The notes: generated by a model from the letters alone, not told the origin. 64,000 nucleotides of DNA from Bacillota bacterium (GCA_023398815.1 JAEWRW010000010.1:2316-66315); one strand, 5' to 3'; shown: positions 5,585 through 52,805, numbered from the stretch's first letter. A program made the numbers and translations.

Positions 5585-5760
5585 TCACAAAACCATGCAG
5601 TCAAGGGGTAGGGGAGTGGAGGGTTCCGGTATCCTTGGGTTTGACATCATCCACGGTGCTGGGGCGCTCAGATTGGACGTGCATCCAGGGTGGGCAGCCT
5701 TCGTGTCCTTACGCCGCATCCGGCGGCTAGGGCGTTGCTTTGCAACGCCCTCACGGACAC

Positions 5761-8367
5761 TCAGGTTGGACGCGCATCCGGCGCGTCCGATACCAAAAAC
5801 GTGTGTTTGCGGTTGTTGCGGATGGATGGGCCGGGCAGCTTCATAAACCGTGCGCCGTAGATGATGCGCAGCATGGTCTCCGCCTCCTGCGGGATGGGCA
5901 GCAGGTGCCCCTCAAAGGATATAAGCCGTGGCGTGCCAAAGAACGCCACTGGGAAGGTCTCGCGCTCGGCGGGGTAGTAGCTGCACAGATTGGCCACATA
6001 CCGGTGCTCCTGGTCGTTGAAGGTGCGCAGCCGCCGTTCAATGAGCCGGTGTACCGCCTTGGTGGGGAAGAGGGGCGAGAGCACGCGCATGAGGTAGCGG
6101 CGGGGGCTCCGGCCCATGGCGAGCGAGTAACCCGTTTTGATGAACAACGTGCGCCGCAGGCGCTGCACCGCACGGGCCTGGCGCAGCTGCTCCACACTGG
6201 CTTGGCGGGGCACATAGTCCAGCGGGAAGAGGTCGATGTATGGCCCGCTGTAGGGCGAGAGCTTGGCTACCTTCTCCTGCCGGAAACGGGTGGGTCGGGT
6301 CATCTGCAGCTTTGCGCCCAGCACCCAGTGGTTGGGGTTGGTCTCAAAGCAATCCAGATTGACGCCGGGGATGGGGTGCTGCTGCACCGTCTGTACAAAA
6401 CGGTCGTACTCAGCCCGGGTCATCACGATGTCAATGTCGTCATCCCACGGGATGAAGCCGTGGTGGCGCACCGCCCCCAGCAGCGTCCCCTCCGCCAGGT
6501 AGTAGGTGAAGCCATGCTCCCGGCAGTAGGCGTCCACCGCCAGCAGAATCTCCAGCTCCAGCCGCTGCAGCTCACGCATGTCGTCGTTCAGGCCCCGCCG
6601 CAGCCGCTGTGGTTCGGTGGGATCGGGCGGGGGCGTTTCGGTGGGCAGGGCAGGGGGGCAGAAAATGGCTTCCAGCAGGGTGGCAAGCTCACCGGGCGGC
6701 AGGGGCACGGGGCCATCGGGCAAGGGCATGGCAGCCAGCGGGGCAGCCAGGGCAGCCGCTTCCTCGGGGGTGCGGGGCTGGGGCTTCAGGCCAAAGAGCT
6801 CCACCACGAACGCGAACTCCGCCGCCGCTTTTTCACTCGTCAGGGTTTGGAAGATGGCCTTCAGGTGGTCGAGCCTGCGGGTCAGCCGGTCATTGACCGG
6901 GGCCAACGGGACGGCGCGGGTGGCGGCATAGTAAAGCCAGAAGCCCGGCAGGCAGAGGGCCGCACCGTGGCCCTGGGTCAGCCCCAACGTCAGCGCCAGG
7001 TGCCCGCCCAGCGCCCAGGCCGGGCCGGGCCCGGTGAGGTTGGCGGCCTGGCCAGCGCGGTGGGAAGCCTCCAGCAGCCGAAGGGTGGCGTCTTCGTCGT
7101 CGGCCAGGGTCTCCAGCAGGCCATCCAGCAGCTGAGCCAGTGCAGCACGGGCATGCTGGTTGCTTTCCCCGTTGGCGGTGGGCAGCCACTGGCACTCCAC
7201 ACTGCGGGCCAGCGCCGCCACCAGCCCGGCTTTGCGCCGCTCGGGCCGCTGGCTGGGGGGCAGCACCGGGTCGAGGATCACGGCGTCGGGCAGCAGGCTG
7301 TGGTGGCAGAGCGTTGTGAGCCCGTCACCTAGGCGCAGGGTGGCGAAGTACGTGGCCGCTGCCCCGCCGCCCACCAGCGTGGGCAGCACCACATGGCGCG
7401 GGGGTCGGCCCGCCGGCACCGTGCCGGCCTCGTCGCCGCCGGCCAGCAGCCAGGCTACCCCCTTGGCCGTGTCTATGGCGGTGTCGCCGCCCACGGTCAG
7501 CAGGCCGTCGCAGCCTTCCCGGCGGTAGAGCGCCGCACCGTCGGTGGCCACATGCCACTGGGGCAGGCCGTCGGGGCAGACCAGCGGGGGCAGCTCGCCG
7601 CAGATAGCGTTGAGATAATCATAGGGCAGGGTGGCGGGGAAGTCACTCTCACACACCAGCAGAGGGCGGCGCACACCGGCGCGCGCCAGCAGCCCATGCA
7701 GGCGGAGGAACGCATCCCGCCCGGCAAAGACCGGTTGCTGGCGGCTGTCCCACAGGGCCAACGCGGTACCCAGTGCTGCCGGGTCAGTGCCTTCGCCGGC
7801 CAACGCCAGCAGGTGCTCCTCCCCCTGCACGGCGGCAAGGGGCCGGGCAGGCGGCAGGGGCCAGGTGCTGTCGTCAGCCACCAGTGCCCGCGCGTCGTCG
7901 GCGGTCAGCAGCAGGGCGGGCCACAGCGCCGTCTCGTCGGTATTGCCGCTGAGCCCGGCCACCAGGCCATCGGCCACGGCAACACCGGGCAGCCCTGCCT
8001 GCGCCGGGCCAACCACCGCCGCCGGGGCGGGGGCGGCCAGCAGCGCCCGCAGCAGACCCCGGTCGCACACCAGGTGGTCTGCCAGCAGCAGCACGTCACC
8101 GTCCAGCCGATTGGCTACTGCCTGCAGCGCCGGCCGCCAACCGGAGCCCGGGGCATCTGGCAGGTCGGACACGCCTTCGTCGGCTAGCTGGCGCAGCAGG
8201 CGTTGGCGTGGCGTCTCACCGCCGGGCAGCAGGGCGCGTGCGGCGTTGTCCCCGTCCTGTGGGTAGAGCAGTACGATCAAACGGATGTCCTCCCAAATGG
8301 AAATGACCACACGCGGCCGCCGCCCGCGCGCTGCCTTTCCAGCATCGGCAGAAGGGGGCTTGTCCAT
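5761..8367 (-). CDS. Three-domain fusion: nucleotidyltransferase-like + Fe-dependent alcohol/glycerol-phosphate dehydrogenase-like + LicD phosphotransferase
   Basis: C-terminus ELEILLAVDAYCREHGFTYYLAEGTLLGAVRHHGFIPWDDDIDIVM is LicD. The middle has LLTVGGDTAIDTAKG (Fe-ADH/DHQS-like). The N-terminus IVLLYPQDGD..LLLADHLV is NTP-transferase-like. Start is set at MDKPP (8367); the ORF is open to 8535, but 8395-8440 looks like an AT-rich promoter region. Confidence 0.7.
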   Translation of the reverse strand: MDKPPSADAGKAARGRRPRVVISIWEDIRLIVLLYPQDGDNAARALLPGGETPRQRLLRQLADEGVSDLPDAPGSGWRPALQAVANRLDGDVLLLADHLVCDRGLLRALLAAPAPAAVVGPAQAGLPGVAVADGLVAGLSGNTDETALWPALLLTADDARALVADDSTWPLPPARPLAAVQGEEHLLALAGEGTDPAALGTALALWDSRQQPVFAGRDAFLRLHGLLARAGVRRPLLVCESDFPATLPYDYLNAICGELPPLVCPDGLPQWHVATDGAALYRREGCDGLLTVGGDTAIDTAKGVAWLLAGGDEAGTVPAGRPPRHVVLPTLVGGGAAATYFATLRLGDGLTTLCHHSLLPDAVILDPVLPPSQRPERRKAGLVAALARSVECQWLPTANGESNQHARAALAQLLDGLLETLADDEDATLRLLEASHRAGQAANLTGPGPAWALGGHLALTLGLTQGHGAALCLPGFWLYYAATRAVPLAPVNDRLTRRLDHLKAIFQTLTSEKAAAEFAFVVELFGLKPQPRTPEEAAALAAPLAAMPLPDGPVPLPPGELATLLEAIFCPPALPTETPPPDPTEPQRLRRGLNDDMRELQRLELEILLAVDAYCREHGFTYYLAEGTLLGAVRHHGFIPWDDDIDIVMTRAEYDRFVQTVQQHPIPGVNLDCFETNPNHWVLGAKLQMTRPTRFRQEKVAKLSPYSGPYIDLFPLDYVPRQASVEQLRQARAVQRLRRTLFIKTGYSLAMGRSPRRYLMRVLSPLFPTKAVHRLIERRLRTFNDQEHRYVANLCSYYPAERETFPVAFFGTPRLISFEGHLLPIPQEAETMLRIIYGARFMKLPGPSIRNNRKHTFLVSDAPDARPT

Positions 8368-18099: not shown

Positions 18100-18530
18100 C
18101 AGCGGGAACCGGGTGCTTCCCCGTACGCGTTGCGAGTTTCCCACAGGCGACTGGCGGCACTCTGCTTGGGACAGCCCGCGCGCCTTACGCCGCATCGTGC
18201 GGCTATGGCGGCACAAGCACCGCCATCACGGCGCTTGGCTTGACGCCATCCACGGCGTCTGGGGGCGGGATGTTTGAGGCTTTCCGTTGCGGAGCATGAG
18301 GAAAGGCGAGTTACCGCCCTCTGCTACTCACTCTGTGCCGGTCGTCTGGTCTAGGAAACTCGCCCGCGTCTCCGAGGCGTTTTTGGGCACTTTTGGCGCT
18401 TACCAAAAGTGCCGCCTACGGGCCTTACGCCGCATCCAGCGGCTATGGCGGTTGCCCTGCAACGCCATCACGGCCCTCGGCCTTGGCGCCATCCGGCCGC
18501 CTGGGCCCGCGGCAGCGCGATTCCAAGAAT
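18100..18530 (+). repeat. Mosaic repeat copy B (R3 core 18125-18435 with internal insertion, plus 3' extension module)
   Basis: Shares GCGTTGCGAGTTTCC, GGGCGGGATGTTTGAG, GCGAGTTACCGCC and hairpin GGCACTTTTGG-CGCTTA-CCAAAAGTGCC with the other copies. Confidence 0.85.
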
Positions 18531-18616
18531 ATGAGCCGGAATACCAAAACATGGGATCACAACGTAGTACGCAAAGGTGCGGCCATCCCAATATTGTGTG
18601 GTTAGGTGCTATGGCG

Positions 18617-18645
18617 TTGACAAACGGCATTTCGCCTGTTACCAT
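18617..18645 (+). promoter_or_regulatory. Putative promoter of a micro transcription unit upstream of rtcB
   Basis: TTGACA (18617-18622), 17 nt, then TACCAT (18640-18645). Confidence 0.4.
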
Positions 18646-18664
18646 TCACAAAAAAGGAGAGTTG

Positions 18665-18748
18665 ATGAACGTCATGCTGAAGCTTCGAGCCCCTCAATAC
18701 GATCGCCTTGCGGTCATACTATGTGTGGGTCAGCATTCCGTTCTTTGA
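18665..18748 (+). CDS. 27-aa small ORF (MNVMLKLRAPQYDRLAVILCVGQHSVL), possible leader peptide or small protein
   Basis: Strong RBS AAAGGAGAG lies 4-5 nt upstream of the ATG. A terminator follows 20 nt after the stop. No similarity recognised. Confidence 0.3.
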   Translation: MNVMLKLRAPQYDRLAVILCVGQHSVL

Positions 18749-18767
18749 CGCTTTGGTTCTCAAAGTC

Positions 18768-18798
18768 AAAGCCCGGGACTGACGTCCCGGGCTTTTTT
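18768..18798 (+). terminator. Rho-independent terminator
   Basis: AGCCCGGGAC-TGAC-GTCCCGGGCT followed by TTTTTT. Confidence 0.8.
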
Positions 18799-18828
18799 GT
18801 ACCCGTTTGGGTGGAAGGGTTGGTCGCT

Positions 18829-20019
18829 ATGTTTGATTTACAGGGCAAATACAACACCGCCAGAATCTTTACAGACAACGTGGAGCCGGAAGCGATGGCG
18901 CAGATTCTCAATCTGCTCAACCAGGAGTTTGTCTCCGGCAGCAAAATCCGCATCATGCCCGACACCCACGCCGGTGCGGGCTGCACCATTGGTACCACCA
19001 TGACGGTGGCCGACCGGGTGGTGCCCAACCTCGTGGGGGTGGACATCGGCTGCGGCATGGAGACGGTGCTGCTGGAGGAGAGCCGGGTGGAGCTGCAAAA
19101 GCTGGACCGTGTGGTTCACGAGCGGGTGCCCGCCGGGTTTGCCACGCGGGAGAAGGCACACCCCCTGCTGGGTGAAGTGGATCTGTCTCAGTTGCGGGCG
19201 ATAAAGTAGGTCAACCGCAACCGGGCCGAACTGAGCCTGGGCACGCTGGGCGGCGGCAACCATTTCATTGAGCTTGATCGGGACGACGACGGCAAGCTCT
19301 ATCTGGTTGTGCATTCGGGCAGCCGGAACCTGGGCAAGCAGGTGGCGGAGCACTACCAGGAGGCCGCCGCCCGCGATTTATCAAAGAAAGCCAAGGATAC
19401 CAGCAAGCTCGTTGCCGAGCTGAAGGCACAGGGGCGGGAGACGGAGATTCAGGCGGAGCTGAAGAAGCGCAGCGTCCACAAGATTGATCGGAACCTCGCG
19501 TTTCTGGAGGGTGACCTGCTGGAGGACTACCTCCACGACATGGCGATCGTGCAGCGCTACGCCGCGCTCAACCGCCGGGCCATCGTGCGGGAGATTGTCA
19601 AGGCGATGGGGTGGAAGATCGGCGAGCAGTTCACCACCGTACACAACTACATCGACCTGGAGGCGATGATTCTGCGCAAGGGGGCGATCTCGGCGCAAAA
19701 GGACGAGCGCGTCTTGATTCCCCTGAACATGCGGGACGGCAGCCTGCTCTGCGTGGGCAAAGGCAACGACGACTGGAACTGCTCGGCACCCCATGGGGCG
19801 GGGCGCTTGATGAGCCGGAGCGCCGCCAAAGGGAGCATCACCCTCTCGCAGTTTGAGAAATCCATGGAGGGGATTTATTCCACCACGGTGGGCAGGAACA
19901 CCATCGACGAGTCGCCGTTTGCGTACAAACCGATGGAGGAGATCCTCCAAAACATCGGGGAGACTGTTGCGGTCATCCAAACGATCAAGCCGCTCTACAA
20001 CTTCAAGGCGGCGGAGTAG
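18829..20019 (+). pseudogene. rtcB: RNA ligase RtcB interrupted by one in-frame TAG (19207-19209)
   Basis: ORFs 18829-19209 and 19210-20019 are in the same frame. The N-terminal part has IMPDTHAGAGCTIGT. The C-terminal part has GTLGGGNHFIEL, HSGSRNLG and CSAPHGAGR (RtcB metal and GMP-His motifs). Confidence 0.8.
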
Positions 20020-20189: not shown

Positions 20190-23100
20190 ATGGTGCAAGA
20201 ACGCGACGACGTGGCGCAGATGCCCGACTTGCAGGGCTTGCTGGGGGCGCTGTGGCGGGCGGACGACCGCTGGCCCCTGGCGGTGCTGGGGCCGGGGGGA
20301 GAGCGCTTGGCGGCGGTGGGGGAGTGGCCCGGGCCGGGGTTGGCGCAGGCCAGCACCCTCCCGGTGGAGGGGGTGGCGGCCTTGGCCGTGGCCCTGCTGC
20401 CGGGCGGCGACGGCCCCACCGACGAGGCGCACCGGCAGCTGCGCCGGTTGGCGGCGCTGGTGGGCGAGCGGCTGGAGGGGTCGCCGGGCGCCCCCTACGG
20501 CGTGGCACGGCTGGTGGCCCGGCACACCGGGGATTTGGTCATCCAGACGACGCAGGACAGAGTCGTCGTCTATTGCTCCGACGAGGTGCGCCAGTTGCTG
20601 GGGTATGAGCCTGATGAGGTGGTAGGACGGCTCACTTGGGATTTCTGCCACCCGGAGGACATCGGCGTACTGGCCCGCGACGGGCAGCTCTCCGGCGATG
20701 GTGCGGCCGATGCGGTGCTGCGGATGCGGCTGGCTGACGGAGGCTGGCAGTGGATGCGTGTCCGTCGGCAGGAGCTGCGCGACGCGTGGGGGCCGGCGGG
20801 CAGGCTGTTGTGCGCGCGGCCCCTGGGCGGGCAGGACATGTTGGAGCGCGCGCTCCTCAAGGCCCTGGAGGAGAACCGGCGGCTCTATGACCAGGCGCCC
20901 TGCGGCTATTACTCCAGCGACCCGCAGGGGAGGGTTACCCGCGCCAACGACACGCTGGCGGAGCTGCTGGGCTACTCCAAGGCGGAGCTCATCGGTGTAC
21001 GTTCCATCCGCCAGATGATGCACCCCCGCGAGCAAGCCGAGTGCATCATTGCCGCCATGTGTGAGGAGCGACGGGGCAGGGAGTTTGAGGTGGAACTCAC
21101 CCGTGCCGACGGCACGCGGGTGCCGGTGCTCTTCAATGCCGCCCCTCAGTTCAACGCCGAGGGCGCGTTCACCGGCTTCCACTGCATGGTGGTGGGCATG
21201 ACCGAGCGCCGCCAGATGGAGCAGGCCCTGCGCCAGAGCGAGGAACAATACCGCCTGCTGGCTGAGCATTCGGCCGACGCCATCGTGCGGGCAGACGGCT
21301 GCGGTCGGGTGTCCTATGTGTCGCCGGCCAGCGAGCGGCTGCTGGGATACCGGCCCGACGAACTGGTGCCCCTGCCACTGGTGGGGTTGGTGCACCCCGA
21401 GGATCAGCAGACCTTCCTGGCCGCCATTGGCCCGCTACGCACGCGGGGCGGCTATTCGGTGCTCACCTGCCGGTGGATCCACCGCAACGGCGACTGCCGT
21501 TGGCTGGAGAGCCGCTTCAACTCCATCGCCGACCCGGCGACGGGGCAGGTGAGCGAAATCATTGGAATCACCCGCGATGTGACTGAACGAGTGGAAGCAC
21601 AGCAGGCCCTGCAGGCCGCCAAGGAATATGCCGAGCGGGTGATCCGCCTGGTGAACGGCGTACTCATCGTCTTTGATGACCAGGGGGTCATTCGGGAGTT
21701 CAACCGCGCGGCCGAGGAACTGACCGGCTACCGGCGGGAGGAAATGGTGGGCCAAAACTGGAAAGCGCTGAACCTGGACGTGGAGGCCATGCGGGCGCCG
21801 CTGGTGCAGAGCGTGGAGCGGGGCCAGCCGCTGCGCACCCTGGAAGGAGTGCTGCGCAGCCGCGATGGCCAGGAACACCTCATCCTTTGGCAAAACGGCT
21901 GGCAGGCCGACCAGGAGGGTGGCTATGGCGGGCTCATCGCCCTGGGCACGGACGTAACCGAGCAGCGCGCGCTGGAGGCCCAGGTGCGCCGCACTTCCCA
22001 GCAGATGGAGCTGATGCTTCGCAACATCGACGCCGTGCTGCTGCGGGTGGACCGCACCGGCGTGCTGCGGGTGATTGAGGGGCGGAACATGCGGCCGGGG
22101 CGGGGCGTGGCCAAGGCCATGCAGGGGAGGGACCTGCGCTGGCTGCGTAAGCGTTTCCCCGGGGCCGGCAAGGCCGTCGACCGGGCCATGGCCGGCCACT
22201 CGGCGCGCACCACCATCTCCCTGCGGGGGATGGAGCTGGAGTTGTCGCTCTCCCCCTACCTGGGGGCAGACGGCCAGCCCGACGGCTTCATCGGCCTGGC
22301 GGTAGACGCCACCGAGCGATACCTGGCCGAGCGCAACCTCCACGCCGAGAAGGAACGCCTGGCCGTCACCCTGCAATCCATCGGCGATGCGGTGGTCGCC
22401 ACCGATGAGCAGGGCGTGGTGACGATGATGAACGGTGTGGCCGAGGCCATCACCGGCTGGGCCCGGCAGGAGATCATCGGCCGCCGGGTGGACCACATGC
22501 TGCAACTCATGGACAGCCGCAGCGGCAAGCCCCTGCCCGACCCGGTGCAGCGGGTGCTGATGACCGGCCGGGCCGAACCCCGCACCGAATCGAACCTGAT
22601 GCTGCCCGACGGCAGGCACTGCCCCATTCAGAGCACCGTGTCGCCCATCCTCGAGGGCAGCCGGGTGCTGGGCGCGGTGGCGGTGTTTCGCGATGTAACG
22701 CTGGAGCGCCGCCGGCAGGAGGAAGTGCTCTACCTTAGCTATCATGACAAACTGACCGGCCTCTACAACCGCGCCTATCTGGAGGGCCAGATGAACCGGC
22801 TGGAGGAGGAGGGCATGCTGCCGGTGGCCATCATCATGGGCGACGTCAACGGGCTGAAGCTGACCAACGACGTCTTTGGCCATGGCGAGGGCGACCGGAT
22901 GCTGCGCACCATTGCCGGGCAGCTGACCCGCTGCTGCCACCCCGACCACGTGGTAGCCCGCTACGGCGGCGATGAGTTCGCCATCCTGCTGCCGGGGGCC
23001 GGGGAGGCCGAGGCGGCCGCCATCTGCCGCACCATAGCCGAGGACTGCTGCCAGGGGCAGGCCAGGGGCAGCACAAAACCCTCGATCTCCCTGGGTTTCG

Positions 23101-23756: not shown

Positions 23757-24700
23757 CGGGCTTCGCTTTCGCGGCGGCTGCTTCGCAACCGCCGCGAGTC
23801 AGGAGAGCTCGTCACGAGTGAGTTGGGGCCAGCCACCGCGCATGTCGCTGGCGGGCTTTCGTCTGCGTTGGTCGTACTTTAATTTTACGGTGGAGACGCC
23901 GCTGCGGCGGGAGGGGTGCGTGCCACGGACGGACTGCGGCGTGCCGCTGCCGGGTAAACCGGCTACGCGGCTACCTTTTTGATGGGGCGCGCGGGGTTTT
24001 GGGCAGGAGACGCCGCCTACGGGACTTGCGCCGTCGGGCGCCTGGGCTGTGGCGGGAGGGGCCGAGTACCACGAACGGGCAGTTCCGTGCCGCTGGCGGA
24101 TAGACCACCTCGCGGCTGCGGGACATAGCTTACGAGACGGAAGTCGGTCGTACCGTCCCTTCGGGCGCGTTCGAGTTTCCCCCGGGTTGCATGGGCGAGC
24201 AATGCGCGAAGCACATGACCAGCCCGGACGGCTGGCGGCACTCGGCTGGCGACAACGGGCACGCAGGCACCCTCTTCCCAACCCTCCCCCAAACTGGGGG
24301 AGGGCGGCGAGGCCGTGGGCACACTCCCTGCGTGTATACCAATCATATGGATTGCAAGGCGGAAGTCGGTCGTACCGTCCTCCGGGCGCGTTCGAGTTTC
24401 CCCCTGGCGACCGGTGGCACTTGGCTGGCGACAACGGGCGGGATGTTTGAGCCTTTCCGTTGCGGAGCAAAAGGAAAGGCGAGTTACCGCCCTCTGGTAC
24501 TCACCTTTGTGCCGGTCATCAGGTCTTGGAAACTCGTCCGCTCGAGCACGCCGGATGCGTGCTCATCCGTTTCGGGCCGTGAGGGCGACATTCGTGTCGC
24601 CCTAGCGCCTGGATGGCGCGTAAGGCCCGAACGGGGGCGTTTTTGGGCACTTTTGCGCTTTCCAAAAGTGCCGCCCAGCGCAGCGCGTTTCCTAAAGCAT
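23757..24700 (+). repeat. Mosaic repeat copy C (H1, H2, M3, duplicated 46-nt segment, R3 core 24384-24690)
   Basis: Begins 4 nt after the stop codon with CTTCGCTTTCGCGGCGG. Internal direct repeat GGAAGTCGGTCGTACCGTCC..GGGCGCGTTCGAGTTTCCCCC at 24139-24184 and 24361-24405. Confidence 0.85.
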
Positions 24701-33409: not shown

Positions 33410-34010
33410 CGCTTCGCTTGCGCTTCGCTTTCGCGGCGACCGCTTCGCGATCGCCGCGAGTTAGGTGAGCTCGTTCATAGGTTTAGGTGCCCCTTGACGC
33501 GCATGTCGTCAAGGGGCTGCTATTTGTGTTGGTCGTGCGGGGTTTCTACGAGGGAGACGCCGCCTGCGGCGAGGGGTATGCGCCACGAGAGGACCGCTTC
33601 GTGCTGCTGCCGGATAAACCGGCGACGCGGCTGCGGGACTGTGCTTGCTGAAACAGGGGGCCAAAGAGGTGCCAGACTGTTTGGGTTTCCGTCGTTCTTC
33701 CTTCGTTCTCTCCGGGGCGCGTTGCAAACTTCCTAGGTTGCATAGGCGAGCAGCAACCTGTAGGGTTGCGGCCAGCCCCCTGGCGACCGGCGGCAGGAAG
33801 CTAGTGACAACGGGCGGGATGTTTGAGCCTTTCCGCTGCGGAGCAGAAGGAAAGGCGAGTTACCGCCGTTGCCTCTCAAGCCTCGCGCCGGCCGTCAGGT
33901 CTTTGGAAGTTTGCCCGCGCCCTAGGCGTTTTTGGGCACTTTTGGCGCCATCCAAAAGTGCCGCCTACGGGCCTTATGCCGCATCATGCGACTGGTTCGA
34001 CGCCAGCGTC
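33410..34010 (+). repeat. Mosaic repeat copy D (H1, H2 33489-33517, M3, R3 core 33714-33985)
   Basis: Starts at the first base after the rho stop codon with CGCTTCGCTTGCGCTTCGCTTTCGCGGCGACCGCTTCGCGATCGCCGCGAG. Confidence 0.9.
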
Positions 34011-34288
34011 GCACTCACGGCCCTCTGCCTTGTGCCTCCCGGACGCTTGGGCCAGCGCAGCTCGTTTCCCTCGTGACAGTCATCAGATGCAGAAACACCC
34101 CCCGCCCGCACGATGCGGGCGAGATGCCGGAAAGGCGCGAAGCAATGCGATGGGGCAGCGCGGCAACTGGAAATCGGTACGGCGGTCTCAAATTTAGGAC
34201 TAAGAGCCCGCTTGCTTCTCGCAACCGGCGTATGGTTCCTCCTTGCTTGCCCCAAAAAATGTCCTTGACGCAAACCGCTTTGGCGAAT

Positions 34289-39876: not shown

Positions 39877-40345
39877 TCGGTCACATCGGGCCCAGCCCGA
39901 TGTGACCAACCAATGGCGCTTACGAGTGCTTTGCCTTTGGCAAAGCACTCGTCGCGGAGCGACGCCAAGCGCCGTTGGAAGGGCAGTGGGACGACTGCCA
40001 CACCCGGTGCGAGCTCCCGGCGTCGCACTCGCTGCCGCAAGGCGGCGCTAAGCCGTGCGCGCCCCCAGGTGCGCACAACCGTACAAGCTTACAGTGCTTT
40101 GCTCCGCAAAGCACTCGCCACGCAGTGGCGCAAGCGCCGTACGGAGGGGCAGCTGGAACAACAAGCTTAGATCGGCGCGAGCACCGGCGTCTCACTCCGT
40201 GCGCGCCCCCAGGTGCGCACAACCGTACAAGCTTATAGTGATCGGGTGCGCCGGGCTGGTCATGTGCTATGCGCGCCTGGTCGTGCGCTGTGCGCACTGC
40301 TCGGCCCTGCATCCTGGCTGCTCGCCCATGCGGCCCGAATCCCCT
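39877..40345 (+). repeat. Hairpin, two tandem 145-170-nt repeat units (39921-40089, 40090-40233), then X arm (40234-40345)
   Basis: 12-bp hairpin GGTCACATCGGG-CCCAG-CCCGATGTGACC at 39880-39909. The units share AGTGCTTTGC..GCAAAGCACT and GTGCGCGCCCCCAGGTGCGCACAACCGTACAAGCT. Confidence 0.85.
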
Positions 40346-44663: not shown

Positions 44664-45728
44664 ATGTTTGATCCATTTCATCCGGAGCGCTTCCAGGGCA
44701 GCCTGGGGCGGCCGGGGTTGTTTGAGGGCTGGTACTTCCGCCTGGCCGACCGCGACGGGCAGGGGCAGTGGGCCGTCATTGTGGGGGTAGCTACGGGAGC
44801 GGGGGAGGAGGTGCCGCGGGGGGCCGCTCCATCACACTGTGAGGAGGGGCCGCCCTATGGTTGGCTCCCCCCAGGACCACAAAGTGCCCACTGCTTTGTG
44901 CAGGTGTTGCCGGGCGATGGCGGCCCAGTGCTGCAGGCGCGCTATCCATTGGGGTGGTTTCAATGGGGCAAGCGGGAGTTTTCGGTCTCCATCGGCGACC
45001 CGGCAGGCGGCAAACCGGTGTTTTCTGGCTCCCGGGGGGGCCTGTGGCTGGATGTGACCCAAGGCGGGCGGTCACTTCGGGCCGAGGTACGGTTTGTGGA
45101 CGCGGTGCCCTTCCCGGGCACGCCCCGCTGGCCGGGCATCATGGGCCCTTTCGGCTTTCTGCCGGGGATGGAGTGTTACCACGCCATTGTCAGCATTCGG
45201 CACGGCCTGGTGGGCACGCTGCGCATGGCCGACGGGTCGGGCAGTGTGACCCACGACCTGACCGGCGGCCTGGGGTACACCGAGAAGGACTGGGGGCGGT
45301 CGTTCCCGCGGGCGTGGGTGTGGCTGCACGCCAACCGCTTTGTCGATGGGGCGACGTTTTTTCTCTCCGCCGCCGATATCCCCTGGCACGGTCGCACGTT
45401 CCCGGGGTTCTTCGCCTTCCTGCACCGGCCCGGCCAGGGGATGACGCTGTTTGCCACCTACGCGCGGGGCAGGCTGGGGGAGCTTGCCGTGCAGGGCCAC
45501 AATCTGCAGGGTACGGTCTCCGGCCCTGCAGGAATCCTTTGCTTCCACGCCACTGCCGGCCGTGTGGGCACGCTGGCCGCGCCCCTGCTGGGCCGCATGG
45601 AGCGCACCGTGGAGGAAAGCCCCGACGCACGGGTGTGGGTGCGTCTCACCGCCCCCGATGGTGCGATTGTATACGAGGGCGAGAGCGACGGCGGGGGCAT
45701 GGAGGTGAGCGGACGACTTGCGCGCTGA
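44664..45728 (+). CDS. Tocopherol cyclase-like family protein
   Basis: 354 aa. RBS AAGGAGGA precedes MFDPFHPERFQGSLGRPGLFEGWYFRL, which resembles the N-terminal signature of the tocopherol-cyclase family. Function in bacteria is unknown. Confidence 0.5.
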   Translation: MFDPFHPERFQGSLGRPGLFEGWYFRLADRDGQGQWAVIVGVATGAGEEVPRGAAPSHCEEGPPYGWLPPGPQSAHCFVQVLPGDGGPVLQARYPLGWFQWGKREFSVSIGDPAGGKPVFSGSRGGLWLDVTQGGRSLRAEVRFVDAVPFPGTPRWPGIMGPFGFLPGMECYHAIVSIRHGLVGTLRMADGSGSVTHDLTGGLGYTEKDWGRSFPRAWVWLHANRFVDGATFFLSAADIPWHGRTFPGFFAFLHRPGQGMTLFATYARGRLGELAVQGHNLQGTVSGPAGILCFHATAGRVGTLAAPLLGRMERTVEESPDARVWVRLTAPDGAIVYEGESDGGGMEVSGRLAR

Positions 45729-46019
45729 CGCTGCGCCTGCGCTTCGCGTGTCGCGGCGACCGCTTTGCGATCGCCGCGAGTGGGAGGGGCTCGTTACGAG
45801 TGACTTTTTGCCGCGCGCCGCGCATGTCGCCGCGCGGCATCTGGCGTTGTTGGTCGTGCTGGGTTTCACGCAGGAAACGCCACTCACGTGGAAGGGGTGC
45901 GTGCTCCGTTCAGAGTGTTTCGTGCCGCCCGCGGATGAACCGCTTGGGCGGCTGCGGGGGACTGGGCACGCAGCAGAAGCTGGACACGCTGTCCATCGGG
46001 GCGCGGTCGAGGTTCCCCC
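45729..46019 (+). repeat. Mosaic repeat copy after the tocopherol-cyclase-like gene (H1, H2 45810-45838, M3)
   Basis: GCGCTTCGCGTGTCGCGGCGACCGCTTTGCGATCGCCGCGAG begins about 10 nt after the TGA stop. Confidence 0.8.
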
Positions 46020-46278
46020 GGGTTGCATGGGCGAGCAATCAGGTGGCTTGGCCGAGCAGTGCGCACAGCGCACGATCAGCCCGGCGCACCCGGTCACTGT
46101 AAGCTTGTACGGTTGTGCGCGCCGGGGGGCGCGCACGGAGTGCGACGCTGGTACTCGCGCCGGGGTCAGTGGGTACTCCAGCTGACCTTCCGTACGGCGC
46201 TTGCGCCACTACGTGGCGAGTGCTTTTTTGCGAAAAGCACTGTAAGCTTGTACGGTTGGGCGCATCGAAGATGCGCCC
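46020..46278 (-). repeat. Inverted copy of the 40090-40345 unit (right arm of an inverted-repeat pair)
   Basis: The reverse complement of 46020-46243 aligns with 40090-40345 (AAGCTTGTACGGTTGTGCGC.., GCGAGTGCTTT..AAAGCACTGT, X arm). A partial extra unit lies at 46244-46278. Confidence 0.85.
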
Positions 46279-51944: not shown

Positions 51945-52171
51945 AGGAACCTCCTTTGGTGCCGGTGGCGGCAGGCCCTCACCAGCCGGATGACTCCATC
52001 ATATCCCGCGGAGTTTTCAAAAGCAAGCTTGAATGTATTGCAGATTTCTTAAGGTGTGCGAGTGGGGTCTGGCCCTGGTGTGGGCGGGGTGTGCCGTTAC
52101 CCAGTGGGGGTGCACTCAATCCAGATAGCCATCCAAGGCTATATACTTCTTGGAAAACGGCGCTGCCGCGT

Positions 52172-52805
52172 GGCGGTACTTTTGGATGGCGCCAAAAGTA
52201 CCCAAAAGCGCCTAGGGCACGGACGGACTTCCAAGACCTGACCACCGGCACAAACATTGATGCAGCGGCGGGTAACTCGCATGAGTATTGCTAGGCAACA
52301 CTCATACTCAAACATCCCCGCCCGATCAGCGCCCGGATGGCGCAAGGCCGAGGGCCGTGAGTGCGACGCACAGCGTCGTACTAGCCGCAGGACGCGGCGT
52401 AAGGCCCGAGCGCTGTCACAAAACAAGAGCCGCCGATGGCCAGGGCTGGTCGCAACCCTGCGGGTTGCTGCTCGCCCATGCGACCTGGGGGAAGTCCGAA
52501 ACGCGCCCGGTGAGAACAGGAACGGAGCGCGATACGCCAAAGGGACAGGCGTCCCTTTGGAATCCCGCTACCGCAGTAACCAGAACGAGAGCCGCCCCCA
52601 GCAGCCGCGTCGCGGGTTTATCCCGCAGCGGCGCCACAATGCGTATTCGTGGTGCTAGGCCCCTCCCGCCCGTGGCGCGTTTCTCCGTGAATCCTGCACG
52701 AGCTGCAAAAAAGGAAGCCCCTTGACGACATGTGCGTCAAGGAGCGTCACCGAACACGCGAACGAATTCTTCAAACTCGCGGCCGTCGCGAAGCGGCGGA
52801 CGCGA
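52172..52805 (-). repeat. Mosaic repeat copy E, inverted, abutting the comB stop codon (H1, H2 52718-52744, M3, R3 core 52172-52508)
   Basis: The minus strand begins GTCGCGTCCGCCGCTTCGCGACGGCCGCGAG directly after the TAG stop. The R3 hairpin stems carry compensatory changes. Confidence 0.85.

Follow-up and report, generated by a model that had tools for sequence, protein, structure and literature searches.

The 64,000-nucleotide stretch of a Bacillota bacterium genome analysed here (GCA_023398815.1, JAEWRW010000010.1:2316-66315; the whole of it is called the window below) carries five copies, A to E, of a repeated element named R3, of which copy C lies at 24386-24690 on the + strand. R3 is best classed as a new variety of repeat resembling the repetitive extragenic palindromic (REP) sequences and the miniature inverted-repeat transposable elements (MITEs), with a core that is unusually elaborate and widely conserved, and absent from Rfam. 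Alignment of the copies shows that one strand folds, that its helices are kept by selection and that one asymmetric loop is fixed, and comparison of loci shows an element that has multiplied, recombined and spread across phyla and that decays through deletions and insertions. We give a probability of about 0.5 to the reading that R3 is a non-autonomous mobile repeat of the MITE type or of the type of REP and bacterial interspersed mosaic elements (BIMEs), whose one-strand fold is kept for propagation.

The 12-mer GGGATGTTTGAG has exactly five exact matches in the window, at 282, 18267, 24440 and 33816 on the + strand and at 52307-52318 on the - strand; GCGAGTTACCGCC is present at the position matching each of them, and GCGAGTTACC begins 26-27 nt after every one. 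A covariance model of the unit (see below) finds the same loci, at 226-428, 18125-18416, 24386-24590 (with the terminal hairpin P5 at 24636-24672) and 33766-33965 on the + strand, and at 52172-52371 on the - strand (copy E), with scores of, for example, 218.4 bits for copy A and 145.7 bits for copy C. The five copies of the original prediction are thus all recovered by both routes, and the stem variants that it listed are present: the central hairpin P4 has the stem CCTTTCC/GGAAAGG in copies B, C and D, ATGTGC/GCACAT in A and ATGAGT/ACTCAT in E, and P5 reads GGCAC../..GTGCC in B, C and D and GGTAC../..GTACC in A and E. The enclosing outer helix, P1, is also there as CGAGTTTCC/GGAAACTCG in copies A, B and C, and takes further compensated forms in D (CAAACTTCC/GGAAGTTTG) and E (CGGACTTCC/GGAAGTCCG).

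The R3 unit measures ~205 nt, or ~300 nt with a 5' hairpin, P0; 16 uninterrupted Bacillota units were aligned over the ~205 nt with MAFFT. From 5' to 3', it begins with GCGCG-TT-CGAGTTTCC (P1a and P1), CCTGGCGACCGGCGG (P2), a variable loop, and CAGAGGGGC or one of its variants (P3); it continues with GAUGUYUGA, the P4 hairpin, GAGUUA, P3', a variable loop, P2' and P1'; and it ends with a small hairpin and U-run, the P5 hairpin GGCACTTTTGG..CCAAAAGTGCC and the tail GCCCAGCGCAGCGCGTT. Copy C has the whole of this unit, interrupted by an insertion (module X) and with a chimeric P3. All positions that follow are on the + strand unless noted. The 5' strands of P1a and P1 (GCGCG-TT-CGAGTTTCC, 24386-24401) pair with 24528-24541 (GGAAACTCG-TC-CGC), and across the aligned copies these two helices have 96-98% of cells paired and seven pairs with double changes (RNAalifold and pair counts). 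P2 is formed by CCTGGCGACCGGTGG (24403-24417) and GTGCCGGTCATCAGG (24509-24523), with 14 pairs, seven of them showing double changes, and frequent G·U pairs on the + strand. The variable internal loop that follows (24418-24431 on the 5' side, 24497-24508 on the 3' side) shows no consistent pairing, and its sequence differs by subfamily. In P3, the 5' strand CAACGGGCGG (24432-24441) belongs to the CAACGGGC type and its 3' partner CCGCCCTCTG (24487-24496) to the GCCCTCTG type; as these represent different subfamilies, only ~5 pairs form. The two sides of the invariant loop, GATGTTTGA (24442-24450) and GAGTTA (24481-24486), flank the P4 hairpin (24451-24480), which consists of a variable stem and an apical UUGC-NNN-GCAA mini-helix. 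P4 has 12 pairs, nine of them with double changes, and at least 14 distinct stem sequences among the copies; most of its apical loops are C(GNA)G triloops, a motif that forms a very stable mini-hairpin in DNA. After P1' comes module X in inverted orientation (24542-24636, - strand, ~95 nt), which forms an inverted repeat with 18405-18450 and stands at the same place, between P1' and the T-run, in the related loci L031 and L035. The T-run GCGTTTTTGG and the P5 hairpin GGCACTTTTG..CAAAAGTGCC occupy 24637-24672 (nine pairs, five with double changes), and the conserved tail GCCCAGCGCAGCGCGTTT (24673-24690), in which flank alignment finds the GCGCGTT of the 5' start again, closes the unit. Two details of the fold had to be corrected. 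The blocks GGGC.. and ..GCC, which had been described as single-stranded, are the strands of the covarying helix P3, leaving only GAUGUYUGA and GAGUUA unpaired, and the supposedly constant loop GTTGCGGAGCA is the small helix UUGC-NNN-GCAA, which covaries to UUGU..ACAA.

That this structure is under selection was the central claim of the original prediction, drawn from paired substitutions in five copies, and it is borne out on a larger set. RNAalifold, run on the plain MAFFT alignment of the 16 units, predicted 59 pairs, 26 of them compensated. The covariance model built from these units retrieved 27 strong + strand copies from the window and a related Bacillota metagenome-assembled genome (MAG), among which standard pairs fill 97.3% of cells and double changes occur at 33 of the 59 pairs. 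The covariation score is 0.364, as against 0.06-0.09 when the partners are slid by one to three columns, and none of 500 shuffled controls reached any observed measure. The alignment of the 27 copies was fitted to the model and so favours the structure; the independent MAFFT result agrees with it, and relatives in Bacteroidaceae, aligned on their own, give 64 pairs with 25 compensated. Among the 27 copies, G·U and U·G fill 92 cells and A·C and C·A only 18, so that selection acts on the + strand and conservation is not that of a double-stranded palindrome. The phrase 'functional RNA or ssDNA fold' in the original prediction therefore stands as regards a selected one-strand fold, whereas its 'functional RNA' label goes further than covariation, which is blind to the difference between RNA and single-stranded DNA (ssDNA). 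The variants of P1 (two types), P3 (three types) and P5 (three types) are found in most combinations, which indicates that modules reassort among copies; P2 and P4 exist in many different matched versions. Both strands of each helix match in 26 of the 27 copies, and the sole exception is copy C.

The asymmetric loop GAUGUYUGA/GAGUUA is almost invariant while the helices that flank it vary. It comprises ~15 unpaired nucleotides, or ~21 with the closing pairs, and its GATGTTTGA block is identical in all matches to the exact pattern. Among the copies retrieved by the covariance model, for which the loop was not required, four carry a T to C change at the eighth base of GGGATGTTTGAG, which is the sixth of the loop block (GATGTCTGA). 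Rarer variants are one ACC to AGC change, one copy with GAGTTACC shortened to GAGTACC, and one copy without the loop and P4. The loop also resembles the 5' end of the element (CGAGTTACC against CGAGTTTCC), without covariation with the P1 variants.

A scan for both loop blocks in one genome per species (185,579 species genomes) gave 42 loci. About half of them come from a single MAG, 'Bacillota bacterium OH_CBB_43' (60-67% GC), whose coding DNA shares 77-94% identity with the window in syntenic regions; the remaining loci belong mostly to Bacteroidaceae MAGs of the ruminant gut, and one to a Lachnospiraceae MAG. R3 is otherwise rare, being found in ~10 MAG species of this collection and, by exact loop, in six metagenome contigs, all of the Bacteroidaceae type. 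By our own estimate, about one exact-pattern match would be expected by chance in the genome collection; the hairpin context of every match there argues that they are real. The exact loop has no match in viral contigs. A relaxed loop pattern gave four matches in viral contigs, none of them with a hairpin, which were set aside as chance, and neither the Bacillota nor the Bacteroidaceae units had a blastn match among plasmids and phages.

The Bacteroidaceae element is at least ~270 nt long and resembles R3 well beyond the loop by which it was detected. It is closed by CCGGCAC/GTGCCGG, where the Bacillota form has CCGGCGGCAC/GTGCCGG, and its P3 is unrelated in sequence (GAATGG/CCATTC or GAACGG/CCGTTC). 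These copies also have a long covarying stem leading to the loop, GUUGC after the loop, a U-run, and a CTTTTGG..CCAAAAG hairpin. They mostly lie ~30-200 nt from contig ends, with two to seven loci per MAG, as is characteristic of a multi-copy repeat. In three loci (L024, L045 and L046), a second copy, diverged and inverted, is located ~150-330 nt upstream of the main Bacteroidaceae element, with the loop blocks CUGUUUGAG/GCGAGUU and the P3 helix GGAUAAAAG/CUUUUAUCC; it reduces the common core to UGUUUGAG...GCGAGUU and indicates that the family is wider than the exact scan pattern. In the Lachnospiraceae MAG, where the match is single (L020), a 230-nt hairpin (z = -11.9), whose terminal arms pair perfectly over 17 bp, carries the loop and a perfect P4 at its tip.

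The density of R3 in the Bacillota lineage is high, with five copies in the window, six in one 8-kb locus of the MAG (L039) and ~40 in the ~200 kb searched; nearly every gene gap of L039 has an R3 copy or an inverted pair. The copies are intergenic in 29 of 30 cases, and their orientation relative to the upstream and downstream genes (same to opposite) is 14:13 and 14:12, respectively; no ORF was found to recur beside them. Those of the window sit in unusually long intergenic regions crowded with other repeats, among ordinary chromosomal genes such as dnaN, rho, tilS, amt and those for an EPSP-synthase-family enzyme, an [FeFe] hydrogenase and PAS-GGDEF proteins. R3 content differs between syntenic regions, as the MAG loci L025 and L030 hold whole copies where the window has none or a stump. 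Copies often form inverted pairs with a spacing of 120-200 nt, as in L016 (2005-2569), L026 (2378-2982) and L039 (4679-5293 and 6366-6893), three of them head-to-head and one tail-to-tail.

Many copies are mosaics with other modules. Module X, which measures ~85 nt and has three hairpins (CCTTACGCCGCATC..GCGGCTATGGCG..CGCCATCACGGC..GGCCTTGCGCC), is an insertion unit in its own right and enters R3 at three defined sites: in the 5' strand of P3, after P5 or, inverted, after P1'. The original prediction had treated it as a 3' extension of R3 that also occurs alone; it does occur alone, at 5707-5779 (+), and it is a separate module rather than part of R3. It shares 22 of 23 nt with one Escherichia coli REP/BIME in the fetB-cnoX spacer, a match with a blastn E-value of 4 that is not significant and serves as a lead only. 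Module Y, a hairpin of 42-60 nt (GGTTGCATGGGCGAGCA...GCGACCAG) inserted between P1 and P2, is present at 33734-33775, 52446-52489 (- strand) and 24177-24222, and also at 3-62, 444-481, 40277-40337 and 46017-46079. CCCNGG borders it on each side and may represent a target duplication or else belong to an optional stem. The P0 hairpin, found in ~12 of 28 copies ~40 nt upstream of R3, is terminator-like (GGGATTCCAAAGGG-N4-CCCTTTGG, then CGTTTTT); its stem is the P5 duplex with the loop at the opposite end, and its flanks (GGGAUU../..GUCGUUAUCC) echo the blocks of the invariant loop. Both P0 with CGTTTTT and the main hairpin with its U-run have the shape of an intrinsic terminator, although a terminator scan called neither and the orientation relative to the upstream gene is the 14:13 given above. 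At both ends, an A-run/U-run duplex stands beside a second U-run (P0 with CGUUUUU, and GCGUUUUUGG with P5), and one may speculate that U·A-U triplexes protect the ends.

With these modules included, the loci of the original prediction hold and several of its ends shift. Copy A with its P0 spans 174-445 on the + strand (P0 at 174-211, main unit at 224-428, then a truncated X/Y module). Copy B (+) reaches from 18125 to 18522, with module X in the 5' strand of P3 (18177-18259) and again after P5 (18417-18502). Copy D (+) extends over 33714-34069, its P1 and P2 separated by module Y (33734-33775) and its P5 and tail by module X (33966-34050). Copy E, on the - strand, covers 52152-52508, or 52152-52566 with the P0 upstream of it (P0 at 52530-52566, Y at 52446-52489, X at 52329-52411, core at 52271-52319 and P5 at 52175-52203). 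Two stumps lie on the + strand. The one at 24150-24260 is a truncated 5' half (5' strand of P1, module Y, 5' strands of P2 and P3) that ends just before the invariant loop and belongs to the repeat families D9, D13 and D14; the other, at 45948-46079 (family D14), consists of a 5' stump and module Y, and the equivalent MAG locus, L030, has a whole R3. Directly downstream of copy B, the gene rtcB is probably disrupted: RtcB is split into two ORFs (open reading frames; 18577-19209 and 19309-20019) that are 100 nt apart and together lack positions 89-184 of the Pfam profile.

The high copy number, the intergenic position in both orientations, the nested insertions and chimeras, the presence/absence differences and the patchy distribution over phyla argue for a selfish mobile repeat over a classical non-coding RNA (ncRNA) gene or a cis-acting regulator, and R3 behaves as a proliferating repeat, not as a single-function ncRNA gene or a riboswitch. 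Under this reading, R3 would have expanded within the intergenic DNA of a high-GC Bacillota lineage until its copies were very numerous, and its relatives would have spread horizontally to Bacteroidaceae of the ruminant gut and to a Lachnospiraceae. The invariant loop, presented by the helices, would be the docking site of a putative trans-encoded protein that copies or moves R3, and only lineages with both loop and helices intact would keep multiplying, which would explain why covarying, reassorting stems stand beside a fixed loop. With the loop as the presumed site of the propagation protein, selection would act on the propagating lineages and not on each resident copy. The folded strand could be either ssDNA, as a substrate of the HUH/RAYT (REP-associated tyrosine transposase) or attC type, or an RNA transcript. 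The C(GNA)G triloops of P4, the lack of a detected promoter in the Bacillota copies and the gene-independent orientation hint at DNA; the TAAYTTY box and U-run of the Bacteroidaceae copies and the U-run after the Bacillota main hairpin hint at RNA. It is a tentative further proposal, and one that we hold to be rather less likely than the mobile-repeat reading itself, that the invariant loop and helices are the core of an undescribed structured nucleic acid, either a protein-binding or catalytic RNA or an ssDNA mobility substrate, that is selfish and has crossed between Bacillota and Bacteroidota.

Several observations weigh against R3 as a mobile repeat. No transposase, RAYT, reverse transcriptase or recombinase was found beside the copies or elsewhere in the sequence searched. 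A Pfam scan gave no transposase in the window; among the families listed, it gave only housekeeping genes for 40 window ORFs and 77 MAG ORFs, and no Y1 transposase for 107 ORFs, for 67 of which the families listed were the 25 best-represented of 86 matched. No autonomous insertion sequence (IS) sharing the R3 ends was found in the ~420 kb examined. No copy-specific direct repeat was seen that could represent a target-site duplication; the GCGCGTT at both ends is identical in all copies. Joining the flanks gave no empty site. In the window, four of the five copies are on the G-rich strand; over all loci, GC skew, a noisy proxy in 8-kb pieces, divides them into 15 on the G-rich and 16 on the C-rich strand, and this lack of bias gives no support to transposition through lagging-strand ssDNA. 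The unit is also asymmetric: P1 and P1a form inverted arms, and the T-run, P5 and tail are located on the 3' side only, so that it hardly fits a simple MITE bounded by terminal inverted repeats (TIRs); conservation in Bacillota and Bacteroidaceae extends 60-90 nt beyond the 3' arm and ~80 nt before the 5' arm. Moreover, ~10 nt upstream of the first helix, the Bacteroidaceae copies have a TAAYTTY box, which we liken to the Bacteroides -7 promoter element (TAnnTTTG), and their closing helix is directly followed by a U-run (GCC-UUUU); judged by their sequence, these look like a promoter and a terminator and fit a transcribed RNA at least as well. Finally, the invariance of the loop across phyla is partly built in, as the collection scans demanded the exact loop.

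An alternative is that R3 is a multi-copy family of expressed structured ncRNAs, in which each copy is a gene, the loop binds a cellular or element-encoded protein (R3 serving as a sponge, a scaffold or part of an RNP) and mobility is secondary. The fold on one strand with its many G·U pairs would suit such a family, as would ~21 invariant loop nucleotides within covarying helices, which are typical of protein- or ligand-binding RNAs, the TAAYTTY box ~10 nt before the first helix together with GCC-UUUU after the closing helix in Bacteroidaceae, the small hairpin and U-run after P1' in the Bacillota unit, and the single match in the Lachnospiraceae MAG. We nevertheless consider it rather unlikely: a sigma-70-like promoter was detected neither within the Bacillota copies nor ahead of them, the density in L039, the chimeras, the stumps and the nested insertions are unlike known families of small RNAs (sRNAs), and the distribution over ~10 MAG species and six metagenome contigs is very patchy. 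Improbable, and clearly more so than an ncRNA family, is a role in cis on host transcripts or DNA, by which R3 would be retained by the host as a terminator, insulator, mRNA-stabilising hairpin or nucleoid or topoisomerase site. REP, ERIC and Correia elements have been reported to act in cis, R3 is strictly intergenic among housekeeping genes, P0 is a canonical-looking hairpin followed by CGTTTTT, a U-run follows the main hairpin, and hairpin modules make a BIME-like mosaic of all the intergenic DNA. Nevertheless, there is no orientation bias despite selection for folding on one strand only, a terminator or stabiliser has no need of a 21-nt invariant asymmetric loop across phyla, and copies are gained and lost between related genomes.

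The least probable of the explanations weighed, and in our view a very unlikely one, is a guide-type transposon RNA, that is, the omega-RNA of TnpB or IscB on a palindrome-associated transposable element (PATE) derived from IS200/IS605, or an IS110-type bridge RNA, the loop binding the nuclease or recombinase and another part reading DNA. A long hairpin in which one internal loop is invariant and the other differs by subfamily would agree with it, and so would the absence of clear TIRs and of a defined target-site duplication, the conserved 3'-terminal hairpin beside the flanking DNA, GCGCGTT at both ends and a horizontal spread typical of such elements. However, no tnpB, iscB or IS110 gene adjoins any of the ~65 copies examined, the closest upstream ORFs on the same strand lie at a distance of 414-1109 nt and are mutually unrelated, and no recurring downstream ORF was found at the Bacteroidaceae copies. 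The variable loop is no more complementary to its own flanks than to those of other copies (longest shared stretch 6.6 nt on average against 6.9 nt), the likeness of the invariant loop to the 5' end (CGAGTTACC against CGAGTTTCC) does not follow the P1 variants, and Rfam gives no match to HEARO or IS605-orfB RNAs.

No Rfam family matches R3. At gathering thresholds, Rfam 15 (4227 models) finds only two tRNAs in the window, and permissive scans (E <= 5-10) of copy C, three Bacteroidaceae loci and the Lachnospiraceae copy return noise only. ARAGORN also called a 100-nt tRNA-Val at 21071-21170, inside a PAS-GGDEF-HD ORF, which is not confirmed by Rfam and is therefore probably a false positive. 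Neither the 12-mer GGGATGTTTGAG nor a description of the element was found in the literature searched. Like the REP, BIME and REPIN repeats of Proteobacteria, whose RAYT is a Y1 HUH transposase of the IS200/IS605 type, R3 is high in copy number, intergenic and present in both orientations, has hairpins kept by compensatory change, forms inverted doublets and mosaics with palindromic modules, and has no adjoining transposase. It differs from REP in being 5-10 times longer (205-300 nt and six helices, against ~20-40 nt), in having four nested helices and a separate 3' hairpin, in carrying an invariant asymmetric internal loop instead of a 5' GTAG tetranucleotide, and in that no RAYT was seen; unlike the lineage-specific REP/RAYT pairs, it is conserved across phyla. 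With MITEs in general, and with long-palindrome repeats acting as RNA (enterobacterial ERIC/IRU, Correia/NEMIS of Neisseria and bcr1 of the Bacillus cereus group), it shares a size of 100-300 nt, folding almost end to end into one long hairpin, and dispersed copies that are non-autonomous or of unclear mobility, and the L020 copy has 17-bp perfect inverted arms. Unlike them, R3 is asymmetric beyond the hairpin (T-run, P5 and tail) in Bacillota and Bacteroidaceae, no target-site duplication was found for it, and it has no sequence relation to them; its invariant loop and freely varying stems are the opposite of TIR-driven conservation.

In having one strand selected, a sequence that is free provided it pairs, conserved unpaired bases and a variable terminal structure, R3 is comparable to attC sites and to IS200/IS605 ends. 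Unlike attC, it lacks the R''/R' consensus (RYYYAAC/GTTRRRY), and its copies are scattered among housekeeping genes, not in cassette arrays; GACAAC..GTTGCC is present in one subfamily only and is off consensus, the others having CAGAGGGGC/GCCCTCTG or CAGCGGGCG/CGCCGCTG. IS200/IS605 ends are two similar small hairpins of the same sense, whereas P0 and P5 are one duplex with its loop at opposite ends, and R3 has no GC-skew bias. HEARO and IscB omega-RNA, IS605-orfB, STAXI, GOLLD, ROOL, 6S and FopS are similar in size class and covarying helices, and some of them are tied to mobile DNA. The Bacteroides sRNA FopS consists of a single-stranded seed and a terminator (PMC11697453), an architecture unrelated to that of R3. 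Among structural motifs, the kink-turn, the loop E/sarcin-ricin motif and the helix IV-V region of 5S rRNA were considered, as were the Cas9 repeat:anti-repeat duplex, Y RNA and the CsrA GGA-loop, and none was supported by the sequence.

The window also contains other repeats. A second family (GCTTCGCTTTCGCGGCGRC..GYCGCCGCGAG, with a GC-rich hairpin) is present at 23760-23812, 33422-33474 and 45742-45794, where it starts 4-14 nt past the stop codons of the PAS-GGDEF-HD gene, of rho and of an ORF ending at 45728, respectively; from its sequence and position it looks like a shared terminator module. Inverted repeats of ~200 bp (85-95% complementary), at 40053-40337 and 46017-46264, bound a 5.8-kb segment with a GT2 glycosyltransferase, an ammonium transporter and two other ORFs, which may be invertible or transposed and built from the same repeat modules. 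In addition, a two-copy intergenic repeat (1296-1546 and 59832-60109, 77-78% identity), which ends in a CCTCCCRCC..GGCGGGAGG hairpin, has matches in the MAG loci L026 and L030.

Bacterial interspersed repeats are usually regarded as lineage-specific debris or simple palindromes. A multi-helix fold with independent compensations and a fixed loop, in two phyla, suggests for R3 a specific partner and a defined mode of propagation. The family offers a covariation-rich alignment for structural work, would be a candidate for a new Rfam family and is a handle toward the machinery that spreads such elements. It also accounts for the broken assemblies of the ruminant Bacteroidaceae MAGs and for the unusual length of the intergenic regions in this Bacillota lineage.

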